From Patescibacteria group bacterium (GTDB lineage Bacteria > Patescibacteriota > Patescibacteriia > UBA9934): a stretch of 64,000 nucleotides of DNA. Of the stretch, positions 1 to 57,478 are shown piece by piece. The translations under genes were made by a program, and so were the position numbers. The notes under the pieces are model-generated. The model had not been told where the DNA came from, searched no databases, and saw only the letters and a program-made list of their open reading frames with translations. The stretch spans positions 247,074-311,073 of the forward strand of contig JAGORL010000001.1 of NCBI GenBank assembly GCA_018062825.1, given 5' to 3'. Within the stretch, counting starts at the first letter, position 1; each line of letters opens with the position of its first letter.

Positions 1-204
1 GCTAGCCCGCTGCTTGTATTGTGGGAGAAGTGGGGAGGAGCACAGGTAAAGGATTCGAAATAAGAAGTAGAAAGGAGACGGTAGGAGTAAAGAGCACGCG
101 ACACTAGTGTCCGTGCTCTTTTGTTCGTGCGCCTGTGCTACTTCCGTCTTTTAACTTTAATCTCAGATGGACATCCCGGGGTTTCACCCCCACTTCCTAC
201 TGCT

Positions 205-219
205 TACTTCCTACTCCCT
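205..219 (+). repeat. CT-rich 15-mer TACTTCCTACTCCCT, copy 1
   Basis: Lies 18 nt upstream of the ATG of the membrane-protein gene at 238. Confidence 0.6.
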
Positions 220-237
220 GCTATACTTACACCAGCT

Positions 238-1761
238 ATGTTCGCCATTATCCTCAACCTTCCACCGGCAGTCCAAGATTTCCTTAACGTAACACCCGTT
301 GAGGATCTTGCTGCGTACGGTTTTCTAATTGCCGCACCATTTCCTATCCTCGGAATTCTTATCTGGGGCATGGTTCAACTCTGGCAAGACTTTAAGCAAG
401 ATAAGTGGACCGCGTCACTCAAGTGGATAACGCTTGATGTAAAAGTGCCAAGAGACACCGTGCAGACTCCAAAGGGTATGGAGAACTTTTTCTCTAACCT
501 GGCTGGTGTGAAAAGCGGACTCACCTGGCGTGAGCGCTGGTTAATAGGAAAAAAGCAGGCTTGGTTTTCTTTTGAACTCATTAGTCAGGGCGGCAAGATT
601 TCTTACCTGATTCGCACCCAAGAAAAGTACCGAGATATTATCGAGGCTGATCTGTACGCTCAGTATCCAGAAGCTCAGATTAGCGAGGTGCCGGATTACG
701 CGGATGAACTCCCTGTTGATTATCCAGATGAAGAATGGGATGTTTTCGGCGCTGAGATTTTGCTTTCAAAGCCAAATTATCTTCCTATTCGCACCTATGA
801 TGATTTTGAGCATCAAGGTGAGAAGGACAATCGTTTCAAAGATCCGATCTTGCCGCTTTTAGAGTTTTTTGGAAAATTGCGTCCAGATGAGCGACTATGG
901 ATTCAGATCATGATTCGTCCGCCAGAGAATAGCGATCACGTAAAAGCTGGCTTAAGTTTCCTCGCAAAGATCATGGGTAAGGAAGAGAAGAAGGCGCCAA
1001 AGGGCACTCTGGCTGAATTAGGTGACGCGCTTGCTGGTCTGCCAAAGGAACTGGTTACCCAAACGATCGGTATGGATTTTGGCGGCGGCGCTGCGGCTCC
1101 GATGGACAAGAAGGATGACTTCCGAGTGTTTAAGCTCACCCCAGCCGATAAGATTATTCTTGATTCGGTTGCTGAGAAGATTGCCAAGGTTGCCTGGGAG
1201 GTAAAGATCCGTTATGTGGCCGCTGGAAAAATGGGATCTTTCCGTAAGGGTCACTTTGCTTCCGGAATGAAGGGTATCCTGCAGCCATTTTCTAGTCAGT
1301 TATTAAATCAGTTAGGCATGCATGGCCCTTCGGTGCCAAACGATGACTACATCTGGTTAGCGTGGCAGATGCCGGGACGTCAGAAGAGATTGGTATCGCG
1401 CTTTAGGAATCGCATTTTTGATGCTGGCGCAACGCCAAGCATCATGAACTCTGAAGAGTTGGCAACCCTTTTCCACTTCCCAGCGTTTGATGCTCGTACG
1501 CCGTCACTGTATGGCGTTGGCGCACGTCGTGCTGAGGCTCCAGAGGAATTGTCATTTGCAGGTCCTGCTGCTCCAAGTACCCCTGGCTGGTCAGAGCTAT
1601 TCTCTGCTAATGTACTTCCAGACGATGAAGAAGCCGCAGGTGAGCCACAAGAAGAGCTACCAGCTCCAGAATTGCCTCGCCCTCACGCTCCAACTCGTCC
1701 CGGTGCGGCTCCAGTCCCAACTGCGGACAGCGCTGATACGCCTCCGAATCTGCCAGTCTAA
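238..1761 (+). CDS. hypothetical membrane protein with two N-terminal TM helices and a large hydrophilic domain; first gene of a pair with the T4CP-like ATPase
   Basis: ORF track 121..1761 starts at an alternative TTG; first ATG is at 238 (MFAIILNLPP...). Hydrophobic segments LTPAMFAIILNL and FLIAAPFPILGILIWGMV. No Shine-Dalgarno; a CT-rich leader precedes it. The stop lies 9 nt before the next gene. Confidence 0.5.
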   Translation: MFAIILNLPPAVQDFLNVTPVEDLAAYGFLIAAPFPILGILIWGMVQLWQDFKQDKWTASLKWITLDVKVPRDTVQTPKGMENFFSNLAGVKSGLTWRERWLIGKKQAWFSFELISQGGKISYLIRTQEKYRDIIEADLYAQYPEAQISEVPDYADELPVDYPDEEWDVFGAEILLSKPNYLPIRTYDDFEHQGEKDNRFKDPILPLLEFFGKLRPDERLWIQIMIRPPENSDHVKAGLSFLAKIMGKEEKKAPKGTLAELGDALAGLPKELVTQTIGMDFGGGAAAPMDKKDDFRVFKLTPADKIILDSVAEKIAKVAWEVKIRYVAAGKMGSFRKGHFASGMKGILQPFSSQLLNQLGMHGPSVPNDDYIWLAWQMPGRQKRLVSRFRNRIFDAGATPSIMNSEELATLFHFPAFDARTPSLYGVGARRAEAPEELSFAGPAAPSTPGWSELFSANVLPDDEEAAGEPQEELPAPELPRPHAPTRPGAAPVPTADSADTPPNLPV

Positions 1762-1770
1762 ACGTATCGT

Positions 1771-3657
1771 ATGAGTGAACAGCGTCCCCGTCTCGACCAC
1801 GAAAACATGATCGTCTACTTCGGCCAAACAAATTTCCGCAATGAAATGCGGAAATTTGGTATTAAGACCGATGATCGTCGTCGGCACGTCTATGTGATCG
1901 GTAAGACGGGTATGGGTAAAACCACGCTCCTTGAAAACATGATCTTAGCGGATATTTACGCTGGGCATGGTTGCTGCTACGTAGACCCGCACGGCGATAC
2001 CGCTGAGAAGCTTTTAGACTACATTCCGGCATGGCGTATTAATGACGTCGTGTACTTCAATCCATCAGACGCGGAACACCCGATCGGTTTCAATATTTTA
2101 GAGGCGATCGATCCGACCATGAAGAACCTGGTGGCGAGCGCCCTCATGTCGGTTTTTAAAAAGATCTGGGAGAACGTGTGGAGTGCACGCATGGAGTACA
2201 TCTTGAACAACACCATCTTGGCGCTTTTGGATACTCCGGGAACCACCATGCTTGGTGTAAACCGCATGTTGTCAGATAAGGATTATCGTTTAGAGATCGT
2301 TAAAAACATCAAAGATCCAATCGTGAAGCAGTTCTGGGTCCAAGAGTTTGCGGCTTATGATGCAAAGTTCGCCACTGAAGCAGTAGCGCCGATTCAAAAC
2401 AAGATTGGTCAGTTTATTTCGTCCGAGGTGATTCGTAACATTGTTGCGCAGGCAAACTCTTCCATCAATCTTCGGGAGATCATGGATAAAGGCAAGATTT
2501 TCATCATCAACCTTTCAAAAGGTCGTGTTGGTGAAGATGCCATGCGTCTTTTGGGCGGCATGCTCATCACTAAAATGCAGGTTGCGGCCATGGAGCGCGT
2601 GAACATGCCAGAAAAAGAGCGTCGCGATTTTTACCTCTACGTGGACGAGTTTCAGAACTTCGCCGTTGATTCCTTTGCGAGCATTCTTTCCGAGGCGCGT
2701 AAGTATCGTTTGAGTTTAATCATGGCGCACCAGTACATTACGCAGCTCTCTGAGCCGGTACGTGATGCAGTTTTCGGTAACGTTGGTACGATTATTTCGT
2801 TCCGTGTTGGCAGTATGGATGCCGAATTCCTTGAAACGGAATTTGCTCCACGCTTTACCGCAAACGACATTCTTAACCTGCCAAAATACGCCATCTACCT
2901 CAAGTTGATGATCGATGGCGTAGCAAGTCAGCCATTTTCGGCCGCCACGTTGCCACCGATTGCTCAGCGCACTGGTTCCATGGAGAAGGTTGTTCAGCAG
3001 TCGCGTGAGCGTTACGGCGGCAACCGTCAGCAGATTCAGGATAAAGTGGCCGTTTGGAGCGGTTTCGGACCAGATACAGACGTTGATGAAAAGATGGCCG
3101 AAGTATCAAAAGCTAAAAAAGATGCCAAGAAAGAGCGTTACATGCACGAGTATACGTGCTCACGTTGCGGTACGGTCTTTAAGTTGCCAATCGAACTTGA
3201 TCGCTCTCGCCCAATCTACTGTGAAGCCTGTAAGCCGATCATTGACTCTGAGCGGCAGAAGCGTGGCGGAAAGCCAAGCGGTGGAGCTAAGGGCCCATCC
3301 TCTAGTGGTGGCTCAAGGCAAGGTGGCGGCGGTGATCGTGCACGAGATCGTCAATCACAGCCAGTTGTCGCACGCCCGCCTTCGGTGCGTGATGGGGAGA
3401 TTATTACAAAGCCTGCGGTTGAAAAGAGTGCATCACTTGCGGATCTTGGCGGCGGTAAGATGCCAGTAAAGGAAGCGCCAAAGCCACAACCGCCAAAAGA
3501 TGAGAGAGCACCCCAAGCACAGGAACAAAGGGCGCCAAAAGAAACGCCATCGGTACAGCCAAAGAAGGAAGAGTTAAAGGCTGACGTTGCTCAGTCTCCA
3601 GCGCTTACTTCAAGTGCTAAGGTTGCCGTCTTACCAAACGAGCGCATCACGTTCTAG
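1771..3657 (+). CDS. TrwB/VirD4/TraD-type (type IV coupling protein-like) P-loop ATPase lacking an N-terminal membrane anchor, with a C-terminal CxxC...CxxC zinc ribbon and a low-complexity K/P/Q-rich tail
   Basis: Walker A VIGKTGMGKTT is followed by CYVDPHGD, which resembles the TrwB IVDPNGD motif. Walker B is FYLYVDEFQNF. C-terminus has CSRCGTVFKLPIELDRSRPIYCEAC followed by a G/S/P/K-rich tail. Confidence 0.65.
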   Translation: MSEQRPRLDHENMIVYFGQTNFRNEMRKFGIKTDDRRRHVYVIGKTGMGKTTLLENMILADIYAGHGCCYVDPHGDTAEKLLDYIPAWRINDVVYFNPSDAEHPIGFNILEAIDPTMKNLVASALMSVFKKIWENVWSARMEYILNNTILALLDTPGTTMLGVNRMLSDKDYRLEIVKNIKDPIVKQFWVQEFAAYDAKFATEAVAPIQNKIGQFISSEVIRNIVAQANSSINLREIMDKGKIFIINLSKGRVGEDAMRLLGGMLITKMQVAAMERVNMPEKERRDFYLYVDEFQNFAVDSFASILSEARKYRLSLIMAHQYITQLSEPVRDAVFGNVGTIISFRVGSMDAEFLETEFAPRFTANDILNLPKYAIYLKLMIDGVASQPFSAATLPPIAQRTGSMEKVVQQSRERYGGNRQQIQDKVAVWSGFGPDTDVDEKMAEVSKAKKDAKKERYMHEYTCSRCGTVFKLPIELDRSRPIYCEACKPIIDSERQKRGGKPSGGAKGPSSSGGSRQGGGGDRARDRQSQPVVARPPSVRDGEIITKPAVEKSASLADLGGGKMPVKEAPKPQPPKDERAPQAQEQRAPKETPSVQPKKEELKADVAQSPALTSSAKVAVLPNERITF

Positions 3658-3659
3658 GT

Positions 3660-4445
3660 ATGACTATCCTGCAGGCGGTGATTCTTGGGGTAGTGCAGGG
3701 GGTTACTGAGTTTCTCCCTGTCTCAAGCTCGGGGCACTTGCTGATTGTGCCGGCGCTTTTAGGCTGGCCAGAGCAAGCTATCGCCTTTGATGTGGCGGTA
3801 CATGTCGCCACACTCGTTGCTGTTGTAGTAGCGCTACGAGAAGAGATTTGGCAAGTAGGTTCGCAAGCAGTGAAGAGCTCGGGACCAGAGCGGAGTTTAG
3901 TGGTTAAAATAATCATCGCTACCATTCCGGCGGCTCTCGTTGCCTTTGCCTTCGGCGATTGGCTCGATCTTGCTCGTACGCCGCTTGTTGTTGGTGGAGC
4001 CTTGATCTTCTGGGGCGTACTTCTTGGCGTTATGGATTATTTTGCCAAAGGCCGCAAGCCAACACTCATCGCCGCTACGTCGTGGCGTGATGCGTTACTA
4101 CTCGGAGCCGCGCAGGCGCTTGCACTGATTCCGGGAACTTCGCGCTCAGGCGTTACGGTCACAACCGGTTTGGCGCTTGGACTTTCAAGAGAGACTGCCG
4201 CGCGTTTTTCATTCCTACTTGCCATTCCGGCAATTGCTGGCGCTGGTCTGCTGACCACGATCGACTCCATACAAAACGGACTCGATGTTGAAATACTACC
4301 TTTGATCGTGGGTTTCTTTAGCTCCATGTTCTCGGGACTCCTCGCGATTCGTCTGTTTCTGTATGTCGCAAAGCACGCCTCGCTCATGAGTTTTGCTGTA
4401 TACCGTGTACTTGTTGGAATTCTTATCCTTTGGTGGTTCATGTAA
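3660..4445 (+). CDS. uppP: undecaprenyl-diphosphate phosphatase
   Basis: VTEFLPVSSSGHL signature; multi-TM protein of about 260 aa. Confidence 0.9.
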   Translation: MTILQAVILGVVQGVTEFLPVSSSGHLLIVPALLGWPEQAIAFDVAVHVATLVAVVVALREEIWQVGSQAVKSSGPERSLVVKIIIATIPAALVAFAFGDWLDLARTPLVVGGALIFWGVLLGVMDYFAKGRKPTLIAATSWRDALLLGAAQALALIPGTSRSGVTVTTGLALGLSRETAARFSFLLAIPAIAGAGLLTTIDSIQNGLDVEILPLIVGFFSSMFSGLLAIRLFLYVAKHASLMSFAVYRVLVGILILWWFM

Positions 4446-13380: not shown

Positions 13381-13866
13381 ATGCAAAGGATGGAAGTATT
13401 GATCGTCGGGTTACTCATTGGTGCCATCGGGCTTGTCTCTGGGCTTTCAGTCATGGGAGCTCGTGCTCGCTTGCGAGACGTCACGCGCCTGGCGCATGTG
13501 CGTGAATTACAGATGGGTCTAGAGTTTTCGTTTGCTAACCGCGGTACCTATCCAGTTGTTACTACACCAATTGCGCTTGGTGAGGCGCGCACTATTTGTT
13601 TAAGTGCAAACGGGTTTAACCCGCCATGCGGAGAGAACGAGGTACCATACATTGAGTTCGTGCCAGCGCCACCAAGCGCGGGCTTGTCTGGCAAGGCTGC
13701 ATGTGACGGCGTGCGCAATGGCTATTGTTACGCCTCAGATGGGGAGTCATTCCGCATCACTTTTGAACTTGAAAAAGCCAACCGTCAGCTTGGTCTGCCA
13801 AAGGGTGCCAACTGTGCTACGGAAAATGGCATAACCCCTGGCGTTTGTCAGGCTTTTGCGCAGTAG
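13381..13866 (+). CDS. type IV pilin-like protein with an atypical N-terminus
   Basis: Begins MQRMEVLIVGLLIGAIGLVSGL, a hydrophobic alpha1-N-like segment with Glu at position 5 but no G|F cleavage motif. C-terminal Cys pair CATENGITPGVC. Confidence 0.5.
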   Translation: MQRMEVLIVGLLIGAIGLVSGLSVMGARARLRDVTRLAHVRELQMGLEFSFANRGTYPVVTTPIALGEARTICLSANGFNPPCGENEVPYIEFVPAPPSAGLSGKAACDGVRNGYCYASDGESFRITFELEKANRQLGLPKGANCATENGITPGVCQAFAQ

Positions 13867-13867
13867 T

Positions 13868-14662
13868 ATGTTGCCAATCATCGCTATCCCACTAGCAGCG
13901 GTTCTCGGTCTTTTTGCTGGCGGCTTTGCGAACGCCGGCATCATGCGCACCAAGGAGACCTTGTCCTTTACTGCCAACCGTAAGTGCTCAATGTGTGCAC
14001 ACCCAATGCACGGTCACGACACGCTACCAATCGTAGGCTATCTTGGGTTACGTGGTCGTTGCCGGAAGTGTAAGGCCGTTATTCCATGGCAGTACCTCAT
14101 GACTGAAGTGGCCATGGCGGGTCTCTTTGCGCTTTTTGCCTGGCGGGCTTTTACACTGTTCGGCGCTCCAATTGAAGTTGAGGCTTCAGAGGCAATTCTA
14201 CTGTTCGCTCGTGACGCTGGAGTAAGTTTCTTCCTCGTGCTCATTTTCATGTTTGATTGGCGTGCGAGCGTGATTCCTGATCGCCTCAGCATTCCCGCCA
14301 TGTTTATAGCATTACTTGCTAACATCTTGCTTGGCATGCCAGCCACCGATGTTCTACTTGGCGGCTTACTTATCGGTTCTTTCTTTGCAATGCAGTTTTT
14401 CCTCACACGTGGTCAGTGGGTTGGTGGTGGAGATATTCGCATGGGATTACTCATGGGCTTCTTACTTGGTCCGTGGGTCGGTATTGCTGCGTTACTCTTG
14501 TCCTACATTTTTGGAGCATTGGTCGGTATCTTCCTGATCGCCACTGGTCGGCGTCAGCTTTCAAGTCATGTGCCATTTGGCACGTTTATGGCGGTTGCTA
14601 TACTCATCTGTATGCTTGCCGGCGCGCCAATTGTCGACCTCTACATCAAAGCCTTAACGTAG
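13868..14662 (+). CDS. pilD: prepilin peptidase (A24 family)
   Basis: CSMC...CRKC zinc site and multi-TM topology. ORF track TTG at 13856 overlaps the pilin gene; ATG at 13868 chosen. Confidence 0.85.
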   Translation: MLPIIAIPLAAVLGLFAGGFANAGIMRTKETLSFTANRKCSMCAHPMHGHDTLPIVGYLGLRGRCRKCKAVIPWQYLMTEVAMAGLFALFAWRAFTLFGAPIEVEASEAILLFARDAGVSFFLVLIFMFDWRASVIPDRLSIPAMFIALLANILLGMPATDVLLGGLLIGSFFAMQFFLTRGQWVGGGDIRMGLLMGFLLGPWVGIAALLLSYIFGALVGIFLIATGRRQLSSHVPFGTFMAVAILICMLAGAPIVDLYIKALT

Positions 14663-53916: not shown

Positions 53917-54906
53917 CTAATCACGCTCAACCGTTTCACTGATGCGATACTTTGGGAAGAAGCCATCAGGTAAGTCATGCACGAGCTTTGCCCAGTCCTC
54001 ACCGTAAAGTTCGGTAGCAAGTTCAGAGCTTGGTACCCAGTGAAGGGCGCCATTCTTACCCACGGTGTAGATCTTTGGATCACTCATGATCTTAAGTAAG
54101 TATGAGCCGGGTTTGTAGGTGACGACGCCTTTAATCGGAAGCGCTGCCATCTCGTCGGTGGTAATGATTTCAACATCGTCAAAATCCTCATACCACGAGA
54201 AGAACGTTTTCTCATTTTGAAAGACATAGCGCCCGCCGTCTGAGCCACAGTAATACACTGTCGATACGTCAGGGGTGCGAATTAAGCTATCGGAAGTGCA
54301 GGATTCTGGATAATCAGCGATTTCAAGATCCTTGTCATCATTGATTGATGTTGCTCGTGAACGCTCAAGCTCAATGTTATAGGTAAGAGATCCCTCTGCG
54401 GCAATAAGTGAAGCGTAGGGGTTAATAGCGGTGTCCCCATCATAAATTTCAAAGTGCAGATGCGAACCAATGCTCTCAGCATTGCCGCTATCGCCAACGT
54501 ACGCAATATGCTGTCCACGTGTAACGCGTGTACCGTCACGTACCCCATCTGCATACGCGTAGCGTACGCCGCCATCGCCGTCGTCAGTTCCTGGAGTGTC
54601 GTTATTAAGGTGGATGAAATTATACGTATACCCATCATCGCCTCGAAGCGTCATCATGTAGCCATAGCTTGGTTCCGTGGTTGGCGCAAACGTAATGCGA
54701 CCATCCGTAGGGGCAAGTACACGAATCATTTTATCAGCCATGAGGTCAATGGCATTATGCTGCCGACCGCCACTACGAGACTGCGTAAAGTCATCAATAA
54801 ACGTTGCTGGTCCATCGACGGGAAAGGTAATATCAATAACCGTCTGTGCATGAGCCAAAGTTGGCACAAAGGCAATCAAGAGCGCAAAGAAAAGAAGATG
54901 ACGCAT
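53917..54906 (-). CDS. M23-family metallopeptidase (secreted)
   Basis: HxxxD (HNAIDL) and HLHFE zinc ligands plus a signal peptide. ATG (MRHLLFF) chosen inside the ORF-track frame. Confidence 0.85.
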   Translation of the reverse strand: MRHLLFFALLIAFVPTLAHAQTVIDITFPVDGPATFIDDFTQSRSGGRQHNAIDLMADKMIRVLAPTDGRITFAPTTEPSYGYMMTLRGDDGYTYNFIHLNNDTPGTDDGDGGVRYAYADGVRDGTRVTRGQHIAYVGDSGNAESIGSHLHFEIYDGDTAINPYASLIAAEGSLTYNIELERSRATSINDDKDLEIADYPESCTSDSLIRTPDVSTVYYCGSDGGRYVFQNEKTFFSWYEDFDDVEIITTDEMAALPIKGVVTYKPGSYLLKIMSDPKIYTVGKNGALHWVPSSELATELYGEDWAKLVHDLPDGFFPKYRISETVERD

Positions 54907-54982
54907 ATACAGGTGACTATAACCGAACGTGAACAAAAAAGAAAAACCACCCCGTGATAAGTGCGGAGTGGTTTTTGGGTGA

Positions 54983-55405
54983 TTATTCGCCAAGTGTCAG
55001 TGGAATCTGGGTCATGTTAATTTCACGACCAGAGTCATCGGTGTTATAAAGTTCAAGCGTAATGCTAGGGCCGGTCGGAGAGAACATGTACACGGCATTA
55101 AATACGTACGTTCCATCAGGTTGTGGCATTACTTCCGAAGTAACGTTCCAGCTGCCATCGCTCTCAATGACACGAGCGTAGATTTTTAGCTCAGGATTAG
55201 TGGTTGTACCCTCAATGCGTAGCGGACTGGTAACGGTTGCATTTGCGGCAGGCGTGGTAACTACGGTATCAGCGGACATTTGCAGGCCACTCATATCATC
55301 ACCATTCATCATGCCACCATTATCACTTGTTCCAGAGCAGCCTGCACCAAGAAGTGCCACGCTGGCCATGATCATTACTACACCAGATAGAAGCTTTTTG
55401 CTCAT
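54983..55405 (-). CDS. lipoprotein (lipobox LLGAGC)
   Basis: Signal peptide plus lipobox; the mature domain is Thr/Gly-rich. Confidence 0.55.
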   Translation of the reverse strand: MSKKLLSGVVMIMASVALLGAGCSGTSDNGGMMNGDDMSGLQMSADTVVTTPAANATVTSPLRIEGTTTNPELKIYARVIESDGSWNVTSEVMPQPDGTYVFNAVYMFSPTGPSITLELYNTDDSGREINMTQIPLTLGE

Positions 55406-55911: not shown

Positions 55912-56541
55912 TTATTCAGCGCTCTCGCCGGCGTTAGCCTGGGCGATGATTGCGTTCAACGTTGTAAGAATGGTATCGAGCTTAGCATTAATTGCTGCAA
56001 GCTCTGCACTAGTGTTGCCACCAGTTGCCTGTTCAGCACGAGGTGCTGAGTAGCTTGGTGTTTCCTGACGCTCACCTGCACCTGCTCCTGCTCCTTCACC
56101 ACCGGTGAAGCAAGGCTTGCAGTAAACTGGGCGAGTGCCCATTGGGCGGAAAGGAACTTCACAGCGTGTTCCGCAAGAGCTGCACTCCGTGTTGAACATC
56201 TGCTTCTCTTCACGGTCTCCGTACGAAGGGCGTGAGAATGAGCTTGAACGCTCTTCGCCACCGCCTTCATTCTTGAAACAATCACGGCAGTAAACCGGGC
56301 GACCCTGCGTAGGACGGAACGGTACGCGGCAAGCGTTACCACAACCAGCACACGTAGCATCATGAAGGTCTGGACGAGCGGCATCGCGATCAGCGCTACC
56401 ATTGCTCCAAGCTCCACGACCACCAACACCACCCTTATGACCACCAAAGCGGTTACCACCACCACCGAACTTTTTACCACCAAAACCACCACGGCTCTTA
56501 TAGCCACCACTTGAACGATCGTCGCGAGAGAAATTCTTCAT
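55912..56541 (-). CDS. Gly/Arg-rich protein with two tandem CxxCG...PFRP...RPVYCxxC zinc-ribbon modules
   Basis: N-terminal RGG/GGF low complexity; CAGCGNACRVPFRPTQGRPVYCRDC and CSSCGTRCEVPFRPMGTRPVYCKPC; C-terminal helical tail. Confidence 0.6.
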   Translation of the reverse strand: MKNFSRDDRSSGGYKSRGGFGGKKFGGGGNRFGGHKGGVGGRGAWSNGSADRDAARPDLHDATCAGCGNACRVPFRPTQGRPVYCRDCFKNEGGGEERSSSFSRPSYGDREEKQMFNTECSSCGTRCEVPFRPMGTRPVYCKPCFTGGEGAGAGAGERQETPSYSAPRAEQATGGNTSAELAAINAKLDTILTTLNAIIAQANAGESAE

Positions 56542-56575: not shown

Positions 56576-57478
56576 TCATGCAAGTGCTGACTGGCTTTCC
56601 TCGCATTTTACTGAGCAATATTGCGGCTTTTGAGCACAATCCTCGCAAATAATAAGTTGACGGTGACACTCGTCAATCGCGCAATTGCCAAAGCGTTCTG
56701 ACCCGTTTTTACATGAGACGCAGCGGCCAATAACCGGATAATTATCTGTAAAATTCTCGGTAAGGCGATCATCAAATACGTAGAGCGAACCCTGAAACTC
56801 TTGGCCAGGATACTGCTTCATGTAGGTGCCGATACCGCCATGCAGTTGGTACACGTCTTCAAAGCCCTGCTGTTTCAAAAAGCCCGAAGCCTTCTCGCAG
56901 CGAACGCCATACGTGCAGACGGTAAGCACCTTTTTCTTTTTGATCTCAGTGAAGTTCTTAGCAATCTCCGGAAGATCTCGGAAGTTGCGCATGCCGCTTT
57001 CACGCGATCCCACAAAGTGACCAACGTTATATTCGTAGTCATTGCGCATGTCGATGATTTCAAAGTCTTCACCATTTTCAAACCAGCGCTTCAACTCTTC
57101 AGCGGAAATATGTTTACCGGTAACCTCATTCGGATCAATGTCTTGATCTTGAGCAAGTCCGGTAGCAACGATCTCAGTTCGAACCTTGATCTTCAATTTA
57201 GGAAACGCTTTGCCAGTTCCAGGGCTCGACTTAAACCAAACGTCAGAAAAGTTACCAAAGGTGCCAGTTGAACCATCCTGCGCGTGCATCTGTTCTTCAA
57301 AAGCACGAACATTCTCCGGTACTCCTTCAACGGTACCGTTGATACCTTCTTGAGCAAGAAGAATGCGGCCTTTGAGCGACAGCTTTTCGCATGTTGTTCG
57401 TAGCCACATCATAAAACCAGCCGGATCCTTGATCGGCGTGTATTTATAGAAGATGATGATTTCGTAGGCGGATTTCAT
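56576..57478 (-). CDS. trhO: rhodanese-domain tRNA uridine(34) hydroxylase (TrhO/YceA family)
   Basis: UPF0176 N-terminal domain, rhodanese Cys loop CTYGVRC and a C-terminal Cys-rich tail. Confidence 0.8.
   Translation of the reverse strand: MKSAYEIIIFYKYTPIKDPAGFMMWLRTTCEKLSLKGRILLAQEGINGTVEGVPENVRAFEEQMHAQDGSTGTFGNFSDVWFKSSPGTGKAFPKLKIKVRTEIVATGLAQDQDIDPNEVTGKHISAEELKRWFENGEDFEIIDMRNDYEYNVGHFVGSRESGMRNFRDLPEIAKNFTEIKKKKVLTVCTYGVRCEKASGFLKQQGFEDVYQLHGGIGTYMKQYPGQEFQGSLYVFDDRLTENFTDNYPVIGRCVSCKNGSERFGNCAIDECHRQLIICEDCAQKPQYCSVKCEESQSALA

Follow-up and report, generated by a model that had tools for sequence, protein, structure and literature searches.

The question raised by the 64,000-nucleotide stretch analysed here (Patescibacteria group bacterium, assembly GCA_018062825.1, contig JAGORL010000001.1; hereafter the window) is whether two of its proteins, a type IV coupling protein (T4CP)-like ATPase and a Gly/Arg-rich protein, are linked by the cysteine-rich finger that both carry. 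A first-pass annotation of the window had described this finger, present once in the ATPase and twice in the Gly/Arg-rich protein, as a shared, probably nucleic-acid- or protein-binding zinc ribbon with a PFRP element reminiscent of YacG-type zinc fingers, and had suggested that the two proteins dock to the same partner or are otherwise functionally linked. The analysis presented below leads to a different answer, namely that all three fingers are probably copies of one promiscuous domain, PF23477/TIGR04272, which was acquired independently by the two hosts and serves each of them separately.

A six-frame scan of the window located three CxxC-x17-CxxC modules that fit the description, and no more, and the likeness between them was found to continue upstream of the first cysteine (MHEYTC in the ATPase versus LHDATC and MFNTEC in the Gly/Arg-rich protein). 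The regular expression used in the first-pass annotation returned three matches in the window versus a mean of 0.0 over 200 shuffles, and the bare CxxC-x17-CxxC pattern returned three versus 0.03 expected; a chance origin of the three modules was ruled out by these shuffle counts. The interval originally given for the ATPase module, 3151-3234, brackets the finger as delimited here, and both fingers of the Gly/Arg-rich protein lie within a single open reading frame (ORF) (Table 1). The remaining CxxC...CxxC pairs of the window are spaced differently and occur in a prepilin peptidase and a TrhO-like rhodanese, and two tRNAs, neither of them relevant to the fingers, were all that scanning for tRNAs and Rfam families brought up in the window.

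The module was identified as Pfam family PF23477 (zf_Tbcl_2, "probable treble clef zinc finger"), the NCBIfam equivalent of which is TIGR04272 ("CxxC-x17-CxxC domain"), using the curated cut-offs of 27 bits and 36 bits, respectively. The Gly/Arg-rich protein contains two copies and scored far over both cut-offs (PF23477, 104.8 bits, E 1.8e-30; TIGR04272, 105.6 bits), and its canonical fingers taken singly reached 66.5 bits (finger 1) and 54.2 bits (finger 2) against PF23477. The full-length ATPase scored 25.2 bits (E 1.3e-5) against PF23477 and 24.3 bits against TIGR04272, and the isolated 37-residue ATPase segment 29.9 bits against PF23477, which is over the cut-off. PF23477 was also matched by 32 of the 32 sampled orthologous ATPase fingers, for which it was the commonest family and the one with the best E-value, and alignment of the ATPase-finger profile to the canonical-finger profile using hhalign yielded a probability of 97.4% (E 1.2e-11).

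At the level of individual residues, the exact four-cysteine spacing is present in all three window copies and the VPF[RK]P...[RK]PVYC signature is complete in both fingers of the Gly/Arg-rich protein, which thus has the Cys spacing, the signature and the predicted treble clef of PF23477/TIGR04272. The ATPase finger of the window retains P11, R18, P19, I20 and Y21, with F12/R13/P14 replaced by I/E/L, and position 8, a fifth cysteine in 79% of canonical copies, is a phenylalanine in the ATPase subtype of the window's clade. The window-clade ATPase copy, CTRCxKxFxLPVELDRSRPIYCE[ED]C, represents a subtype derived relative to PF23477/TIGR04272 and scores at or just below the cut-offs. Taken together, the isolated-segment score, the matches of the 32 orthologues, the hhalign result and the canonical-like fingers of sister-clade orthologues described below indicate on sequence grounds that the ATPase copy is a divergent member of PF23477. 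The scan, the shuffles, the PF23477 matches and the hhalign alignment agree with the original observation of three same-spaced modules, and these data support the view that the three are homologous copies of one putative zinc-binding domain. Zinc binding has been established by inductively coupled plasma mass spectrometry for two small proteins of the PF23477/TIGR04272 domain family from Methanosarcina mazei (PMC12704099), which are stand-alone proteins carrying the same domain as the window fingers. We infer that the window fingers would bind zinc too.

The fold was examined in AlphaFold2 (AF2) models, the reliability of which is given as the predicted local distance difference test (pLDDT). 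In finger 1 of the Gly/Arg-rich protein, C64/C67 lie between strands E60-64 and E70-73 and C85/C88 at the start of helix 86-92 (pLDDT 85-92); finger 2 has strands E116-119 and E126-129 and helix 142-147; and in the ATPase finger C463/C466 lie between E459-462 and E469-472 and C484/C487 just before helix 488-499 (pLDDT 86-91). The predicted fold is a treble clef: the first CxxC is on a beta-hairpin turn, a loop comes next, and a short helix begins at the second CxxC. A classical zinc ribbon, consisting of two hairpin knuckles and a three-stranded sheet, was rejected, as the second CxxC runs into a helix in both AF2 models; matches to Zn_ribbon_8 were weak (14-20 bits versus a cut-off of 34.4). 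Of the initial description, a homologous zinc domain with a plausible binding role is therefore kept, but the ribbon gives way to a predicted treble clef.

How widely this domain is distributed bears directly on what its presence in two proteins can mean. The canonical-finger profile matched 7,255 clusters at 50% identity with E <=1e-3, including 4,397 with E <=1e-10, and the best profile matches were proteins of 130-340 residues with two to five finger copies. An architecture census was carried out in GTDB species genomes using an exact DNA pattern for VPFRPxxxRPVYC, which gave at least 120 loci. Among the matches listed, census loci were found in the Chloroflexota, Bacillota, Acidobacteriota, Eremiobacterota, Patescibacteria, Verrucomicrobiota and Omnitrophota in the bacteria and in the Methanosarcinaceae, Bathyarchaeia and Nitrosopumilus in the archaea, and include a Methanosarcinaceae ORF of 67 residues with the canonical motif. 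All 118 host ORFs among these listed matches matched PF23477; 97 of them also matched PF13451 (zf_Tbcl) and are small two-finger proteins of 91-170 residues, nine are DEAD-box helicases, with the finger N-terminal in eight, and one is a T4CP orthologue. Other fusions comprise a C-terminal finger on a DeaD fragment from a JGI sequence (P0074) and a fusion to a cold-shock-domain protein. The small zf_Tbcl plus zf_Tbcl_2 proteins and the finger-bearing DEAD-box helicases, which carry the same canonical finger, are the commonest sampled architectures; the Patescibacteria Gly/Arg-rich family differs from the former in that it has no PF13451, its PF23477 copies are in tandem, its N-terminus is RGG-like and its C-terminal helix is conserved. 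DEAD-box helicases of Chloroflexota/Dehalococcoidia were recorded with a canonical finger at about residues 21-86 (L052, L070, L072, L073, L082, L092, L094 and L098).

The motif is thus to a large extent that of a generic Pfam family borne by unrelated proteins, PF23477 being spread over 7,255 clusters, many phyla and unrelated architectures. Because the domain is promiscuous, its sharing by the two proteins is read as common descent of a mobile domain and not as a specific link between them.

The history of the ATPase finger was followed in 240 ATPase orthologues of two clades, 239 of which contain CxxC-x17-CxxC. In the close orthologues (60-90% identical) the finger is at about residue 460 in 120 of 120, with the consensus CTRCgKxFxLPVELDRSRPIYCE[ED]C, and in the Minisyncoccia sister clade (about 54% identical; P0349-P0468, L017:5280-6908) it is found at the same place in 119 of 120; the same proportion of sister-clade ATPases (119/120) is annotated with PF23477. 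The Minisyncoccia finger is canonical-like, with F12 and P14 in 100%, R18 in 93% and Y21 in 98% of sequences and a net charge of +2.9. In the window's clade, F12/R13/P14 are changed to V/E/L and R23/D24 to E/[ED], these being the most conserved exposed positions, and the mean net charge of the fingers is 0 versus +1.2 for canonical copies. Sequence comparison thus indicates that the finger was already present in the ancestor of the Patescibacteria T4CP-like ATPase and is fixed in it, having been inherited vertically with the motor. Since the sister clade is canonical-like at the same position, the VELD form is, by the same comparison, a lineage-specific derivative that has lost the canonical basic/aromatic face. 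The switch of finger surface is clean and clade-specific, canonical and basic in Minisyncoccia versus neutral LPVELD in the clade of the window. Both the vertical inheritance of the ATPase finger with its motor and the difference between the two finger types of the window at exposed conserved positions argue against a specific link with the Gly/Arg-rich protein.

The assignment of the ATPase to the T4CP-like proteins was made on the basis of PF10412 (TrwB_AAD_bind, 52.2 bits versus a cut-off of 20.5) and PF02534 (T4SS-DNA_transf, 35.4 versus 20.1), a Walker A sequence, GKTGMGKT, readable in the protein, and a Foldseek search with the ATPase model, in which TrwB was the best match (1e9r, E 6.5e-12, target TM-score 0.57), followed by DotL, Cag-beta, HerA and VirB4. 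None of the NCBIfam equivalog cut-offs was reached. An identical protein from Patescibacteria is recorded at NCBI under the name 'type IV secretion system DNA-binding domain-containing protein', with a precomputed PF23477 match. The ATPase has the motor fold, the Pfam families and a C-terminal extension after the motor in common with the classical T4CPs (TrwB/VirD4/TraD/DotL). However, the classical proteins have an N-terminal transmembrane domain, whereas no transmembrane segment was detected in the ATPase (no 19-residue window with a Kyte-Doolittle hydropathy >1.6) and a separate DUF8128 membrane protein is encoded upstream. Its extension, a zinc finger with a basic disordered tail, was not found described for classical T4CPs. 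The finger is positioned after the well-predicted helices 404-456 and before a short helix and the disordered tail. In orthologous ATPases the tail is for the most part rich in Pro and Lys and contains about 7% Gly, and RG/GR dipeptides number 0.8 per 80 residues; a Gly/Arg-rich stretch after the finger as a trait common to both families was ruled out by this composition. Several further features of the orthologue tails were observed: a common DGE-[IV]-x-KP...SLxxL motif (P0086-P0107), a polybasic patch of the KKRKRRRKK type in many of them, which the window protein does not have, and a second finger inside the tail in three (P0179, P0199, P0203).

The membrane protein encoded upstream of the ATPase (about 500 residues, the gene probably starting at the ATG at 238) is 49% identical to the product of the gene upstream of the Uhrbacteria orthologue. 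The 546-residue ORF matched no family in the local Pfam copy, and the DUF8128 assignment was taken from a precomputed PF26449 match on the JGI-contig counterpart together with the 49% identity to the other orthologous neighbour. The gene order secD-secF-DUF8128-ATPase-uppP recurs in the Uhrbacteria genome and the JGI contig; the neighbours of the ATPase gene are the DUF8128 gene, uppP, a methyltransferase gene, a pseudouridine synthase gene and mnmA, with secDF in orthologous loci. Neither virB4 nor a relaxase gene was found among the neighbours of the ATPase gene in the loci examined. T4CPs are expected with virB4 or a relaxase, whereas this ATPase sits in a housekeeping secDF-uppP locus, and the locus looks like a housekeeping context and not a conjugative element, with a split 'coupling protein' and no type IV secretion system nearby. 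In line with this, a 2025 survey counted 5,713 VirD4-like T4CPs in 2,918 Patescibacteria genomes, of which only 148 were near virB4, and proposed that these proteins were possibly exapted, without mentioning zinc (PMC12102498).

Searches with the Gly/Arg-rich protein returned 83 homologues, several named ones being from Patescibacteria. The family is mainly from this group, and several public records are already titled "CxxC-x17-CxxC domain-containing protein". The family alignment follows a common plan, in which the MKNFxR start leads into a Gly/Arg-rich stretch whose length varies, and after this come the invariant first finger, a linker, a second finger and a conserved helix; the second finger is missing in some members, one member (P0002) has three fingers, and most have a Lys-rich tail after the helix, which the window protein does not. 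One face of the canonical fingers is conserved and made up of aromatic and basic residues (F, R/K, R/K, Y, F). The C-terminal helix carries the motif QLxAINAKLDxIL, in which K187 is invariant and D189 and L195 are nearly invariant, and is probably an oligomerisation element. In the window, the gene has a TrhO-like gene on one side and a SET-domain gene on the other; in other genomes it adjoins a Pif1-like helicase gene or lies near DEAD-box and cold-shock genes. No conserved operon was found around genes of the family, the neighbourhoods varying between the genomes examined and never including the ATPase. This lack of synteny between the two genes argues against a specific link between their products. 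The Gly/Arg-rich gene is flanked by a promoter-like site and a terminator-like hairpin, and the TrhO-like protein has a Cys cluster of its own, CVSCKNG...CEDC.

Table 1. Coordinates of the fingers, of their host proteins and of other features of the window (residue numbers refer to the encoded protein).
Feature	Position	Strand	Sequence or basis
ATPase finger, divergent, LPIELD variant	3157-3231	+	CSRCGTVFKLPIELDRSRPIYCEAC; residues 463-487 of ORF 1771-3657
Gly/Arg-rich protein, canonical finger 1	56278-56352	-	CAGCGNACRVPFRPTQGRPVYCRDC; residues 64-88
Gly/Arg-rich protein, canonical finger 2	56110-56184	-	CSSCGTRCEVPFRPMGTRPVYCKPC; residues 120-144
Orphan T4CP (VirD4/TrwB)-like P-loop ATPase, 628 residues	1771-3657	+	TrwB_AAD_bind and T4SS-DNA_transf
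Post-finger helix, residues 488-499, then disordered basic Pro/Lys/Gly/Ala/Ser-rich tail, residues 501-628, net charge +9	3232-3654	+	AF2 pLDDT <50 from residue 501; composition
Upstream membrane partner, DUF8128-like, 546-residue ORF	121-1761	+	Ends 9 nucleotides before the ATPase start; N-terminal hydrophobic segments
uppP (BacA), downstream of the ATPase gene	3660-4445	+	
Gly/Arg-rich 'CxxC-x17-CxxC domain-containing protein', 209 residues	55912-56541	-	PF23477 and TIGR04272, two copies
N-terminal Gly/Arg-rich disordered region, residues 1-50	56392-56541	-	Sequence; AF2 pLDDT <50; variable-length G/R stretch in the family alignment
C-terminal amphipathic helix, residues 177-206	55924-56013	-	AELAAINAKLDTILTTLNAI...; AF2 helix, pLDDT about 92
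Promoter-like site flanking the Gly/Arg-rich gene	56676-56649	-	
Terminator-like hairpin flanking the Gly/Arg-rich gene	55899-55883	-	
SET-domain protein, 146 residues	55454-55894	+	PF00856, 84.9 bits; convergent with the Gly/Arg-rich gene
TrhO-like rhodanese	56576-57478	-	UPF0176_N, Rhodanese and Rhodanese_C; same-strand gene immediately 5' of the Gly/Arg-rich gene
M23 peptidase with a long C-terminal extension	53917-54993	-	Next to the SET and Gly/Arg-rich gene pair, on its downstream side
Small lipoprotein-like protein	54983-55405	-	Weak Gmad2 Ig-like match; next to the same gene pair, downstream
Prepilin (type IV leader) peptidase A24	13856-14662	+	N-terminal CxxC...CxxC pair

As to what the finger does in each host, the favoured reading is that it would act as a zinc-stabilised nucleic-acid-binding module, probably for RNA. 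A shared nucleic-acid ligand class is plausible because the partner domains with which the finger is found (DEAD-box, cold-shock domain, T4CP, RGG-like and Lys-rich tails) all handle nucleic acid, and because the canonical face is aromatic and basic. The Gly/Arg-rich protein would then be a small oligomeric nucleic-acid-binding or chaperone protein, its ligand most likely being RNA. In the classical T4CPs the tail of TraD binds TraM and that of DotL binds adaptors; by analogy with these tails, the finger and tail of the ATPase may recognise a substrate or adaptor on the cytoplasmic side of the ring, and we infer such a C-terminal recruitment role for them. In the window's clade the ligand of the ATPase finger has probably changed, since the canonical basic/aromatic face has been lost (LPVELD...CE[ED]C).

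Several points weigh against this interpretation and the domain assignment beneath it. The case for nucleic-acid binding is drawn solely from the domains found with the finger and from the composition of its surface; the full-length ATPase falls slightly below both curated cut-offs (25.2 versus 27 bits and 24.3 versus 36 bits); and the census proportions are biased, as they derive from one exact pattern that captures VPFRPxxxRPVYC copies only and from the matches listed among at least 120 loci. In addition, searches of PDB sequences with a protein query and with a profile query gave nothing significant, so that no solved structure was matched, and literature searches on PF23477 and TIGR04272, and also on PF13451, zf_Tbcl and DUF8128, returned no papers.

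The alternative that survives best, which we regard as rather unlikely but worth keeping in view, is that the fingers bind no nucleic acid and are zinc-stabilised structural or protein-protein modules. The treble-clef fingers closest in fold (PHD, RING, FYVE, E7 CR3, CsfB) are mostly protein or lipid binders, the ATPase finger of the window's clade is neutral to acidic, and it is rigidly placed behind the conserved helices 404-456. On this alternative, possible contacts are the DUF8128 partner or an adjacent subunit for the ATPase finger, and the ribosome or RNA polymerase for the fingers of the small proteins. The partner domains and the aromatic and basic canonical face described above are the evidence on the other side, and nucleic-acid binding remains the favoured function.

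That the shared finger makes both proteins dock to the same partner or places them in one pathway, for example with the Gly/Arg-rich protein serving the motor as a substrate or as an adaptor bound to cargo, is improbable. Both proteins have the same domain beside basic disordered regions, both families are widespread in Patescibacteria, and the Minisyncoccia ATPase finger retains the canonical surface, which makes a shared ligand class such as nucleic acid plausible. However, sharing a ligand class is not the same as a specific functional link. PF23477 is found on many unrelated proteins and also in phyla without the T4CP-like ATPase, in the window genome F12, R13 and P14 are gone from the ATPase finger, which is neutral and not basic, and no synteny of the two genes was seen in any locus examined. 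The common partner or functional link proposed at first pass is therefore set aside in view of the widespread domain, the divergent ATPase surface and the absence of the two genes as neighbours in the examined loci, in favour of separate acquisition and separate service of the domain in each host.

A broader connection, for which we likewise see little probability, is that the universally conserved, virB4-independent T4CP-like motor, formed by a soluble ATPase and the DUF8128 membrane protein and encoded in a housekeeping locus, is a dedicated nucleic-acid translocase, the ever-present finger and tail of which thread or recruit the polymer, with the abundant Gly/Arg-rich multi-finger proteins coating or chaperoning the same polymer. 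By analogy with Ced or FtsK, such a machine could have a role in the uptake, export or scavenging of DNA or RNA, and if this were true the two proteins would share the domain because they share a class of substrate. Most improbable is that the module belongs with the DNA gyrase inhibitor-like zinc fingers of the YacG type: the reminiscence of YacG (PF03884) is genuine as a local CxxCG...PFRP string with a four-cysteine zinc site (CPTCGK...SPFRPFC in E. coli YacG), but membership was rejected on the lack of hidden Markov model cross-matches (no match of the window fingers to PF03884 at E up to 10; 85.8 bits on PF03884 and no PF23477 match for the YacG protein), the different ligand spacing of YacG (CxxC-x15-CxxxC), and a weak, partial hhalign alignment (36.6% probability over 18 columns, with the second Cys pair outside it).

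Elsewhere in the window a prepilin peptidase of the A24 family is encoded (Table 1), and type IV pilus machinery is therefore taken to be present in the window.

The shared finger of the ATPase and the Gly/Arg-rich protein is real but ordinary, as the domain, both protein families and the domain-T4CP fusion are already in public annotation (NCBI and JGI names; the precomputed PF23477 match). The domain was catalogued before, is promiscuous, and appears in the database annotation of both proteins. For the Patescibacteria, the finding means that PF23477 is carried by nearly every orthologue (239/240) of an orphan T4CP that, according to the 2025 survey, may have been exapted (PMC12102498), and the split between the canonical basic finger and the neutral VELD form provides a concrete handle on what this T4CP-like motor recognises.

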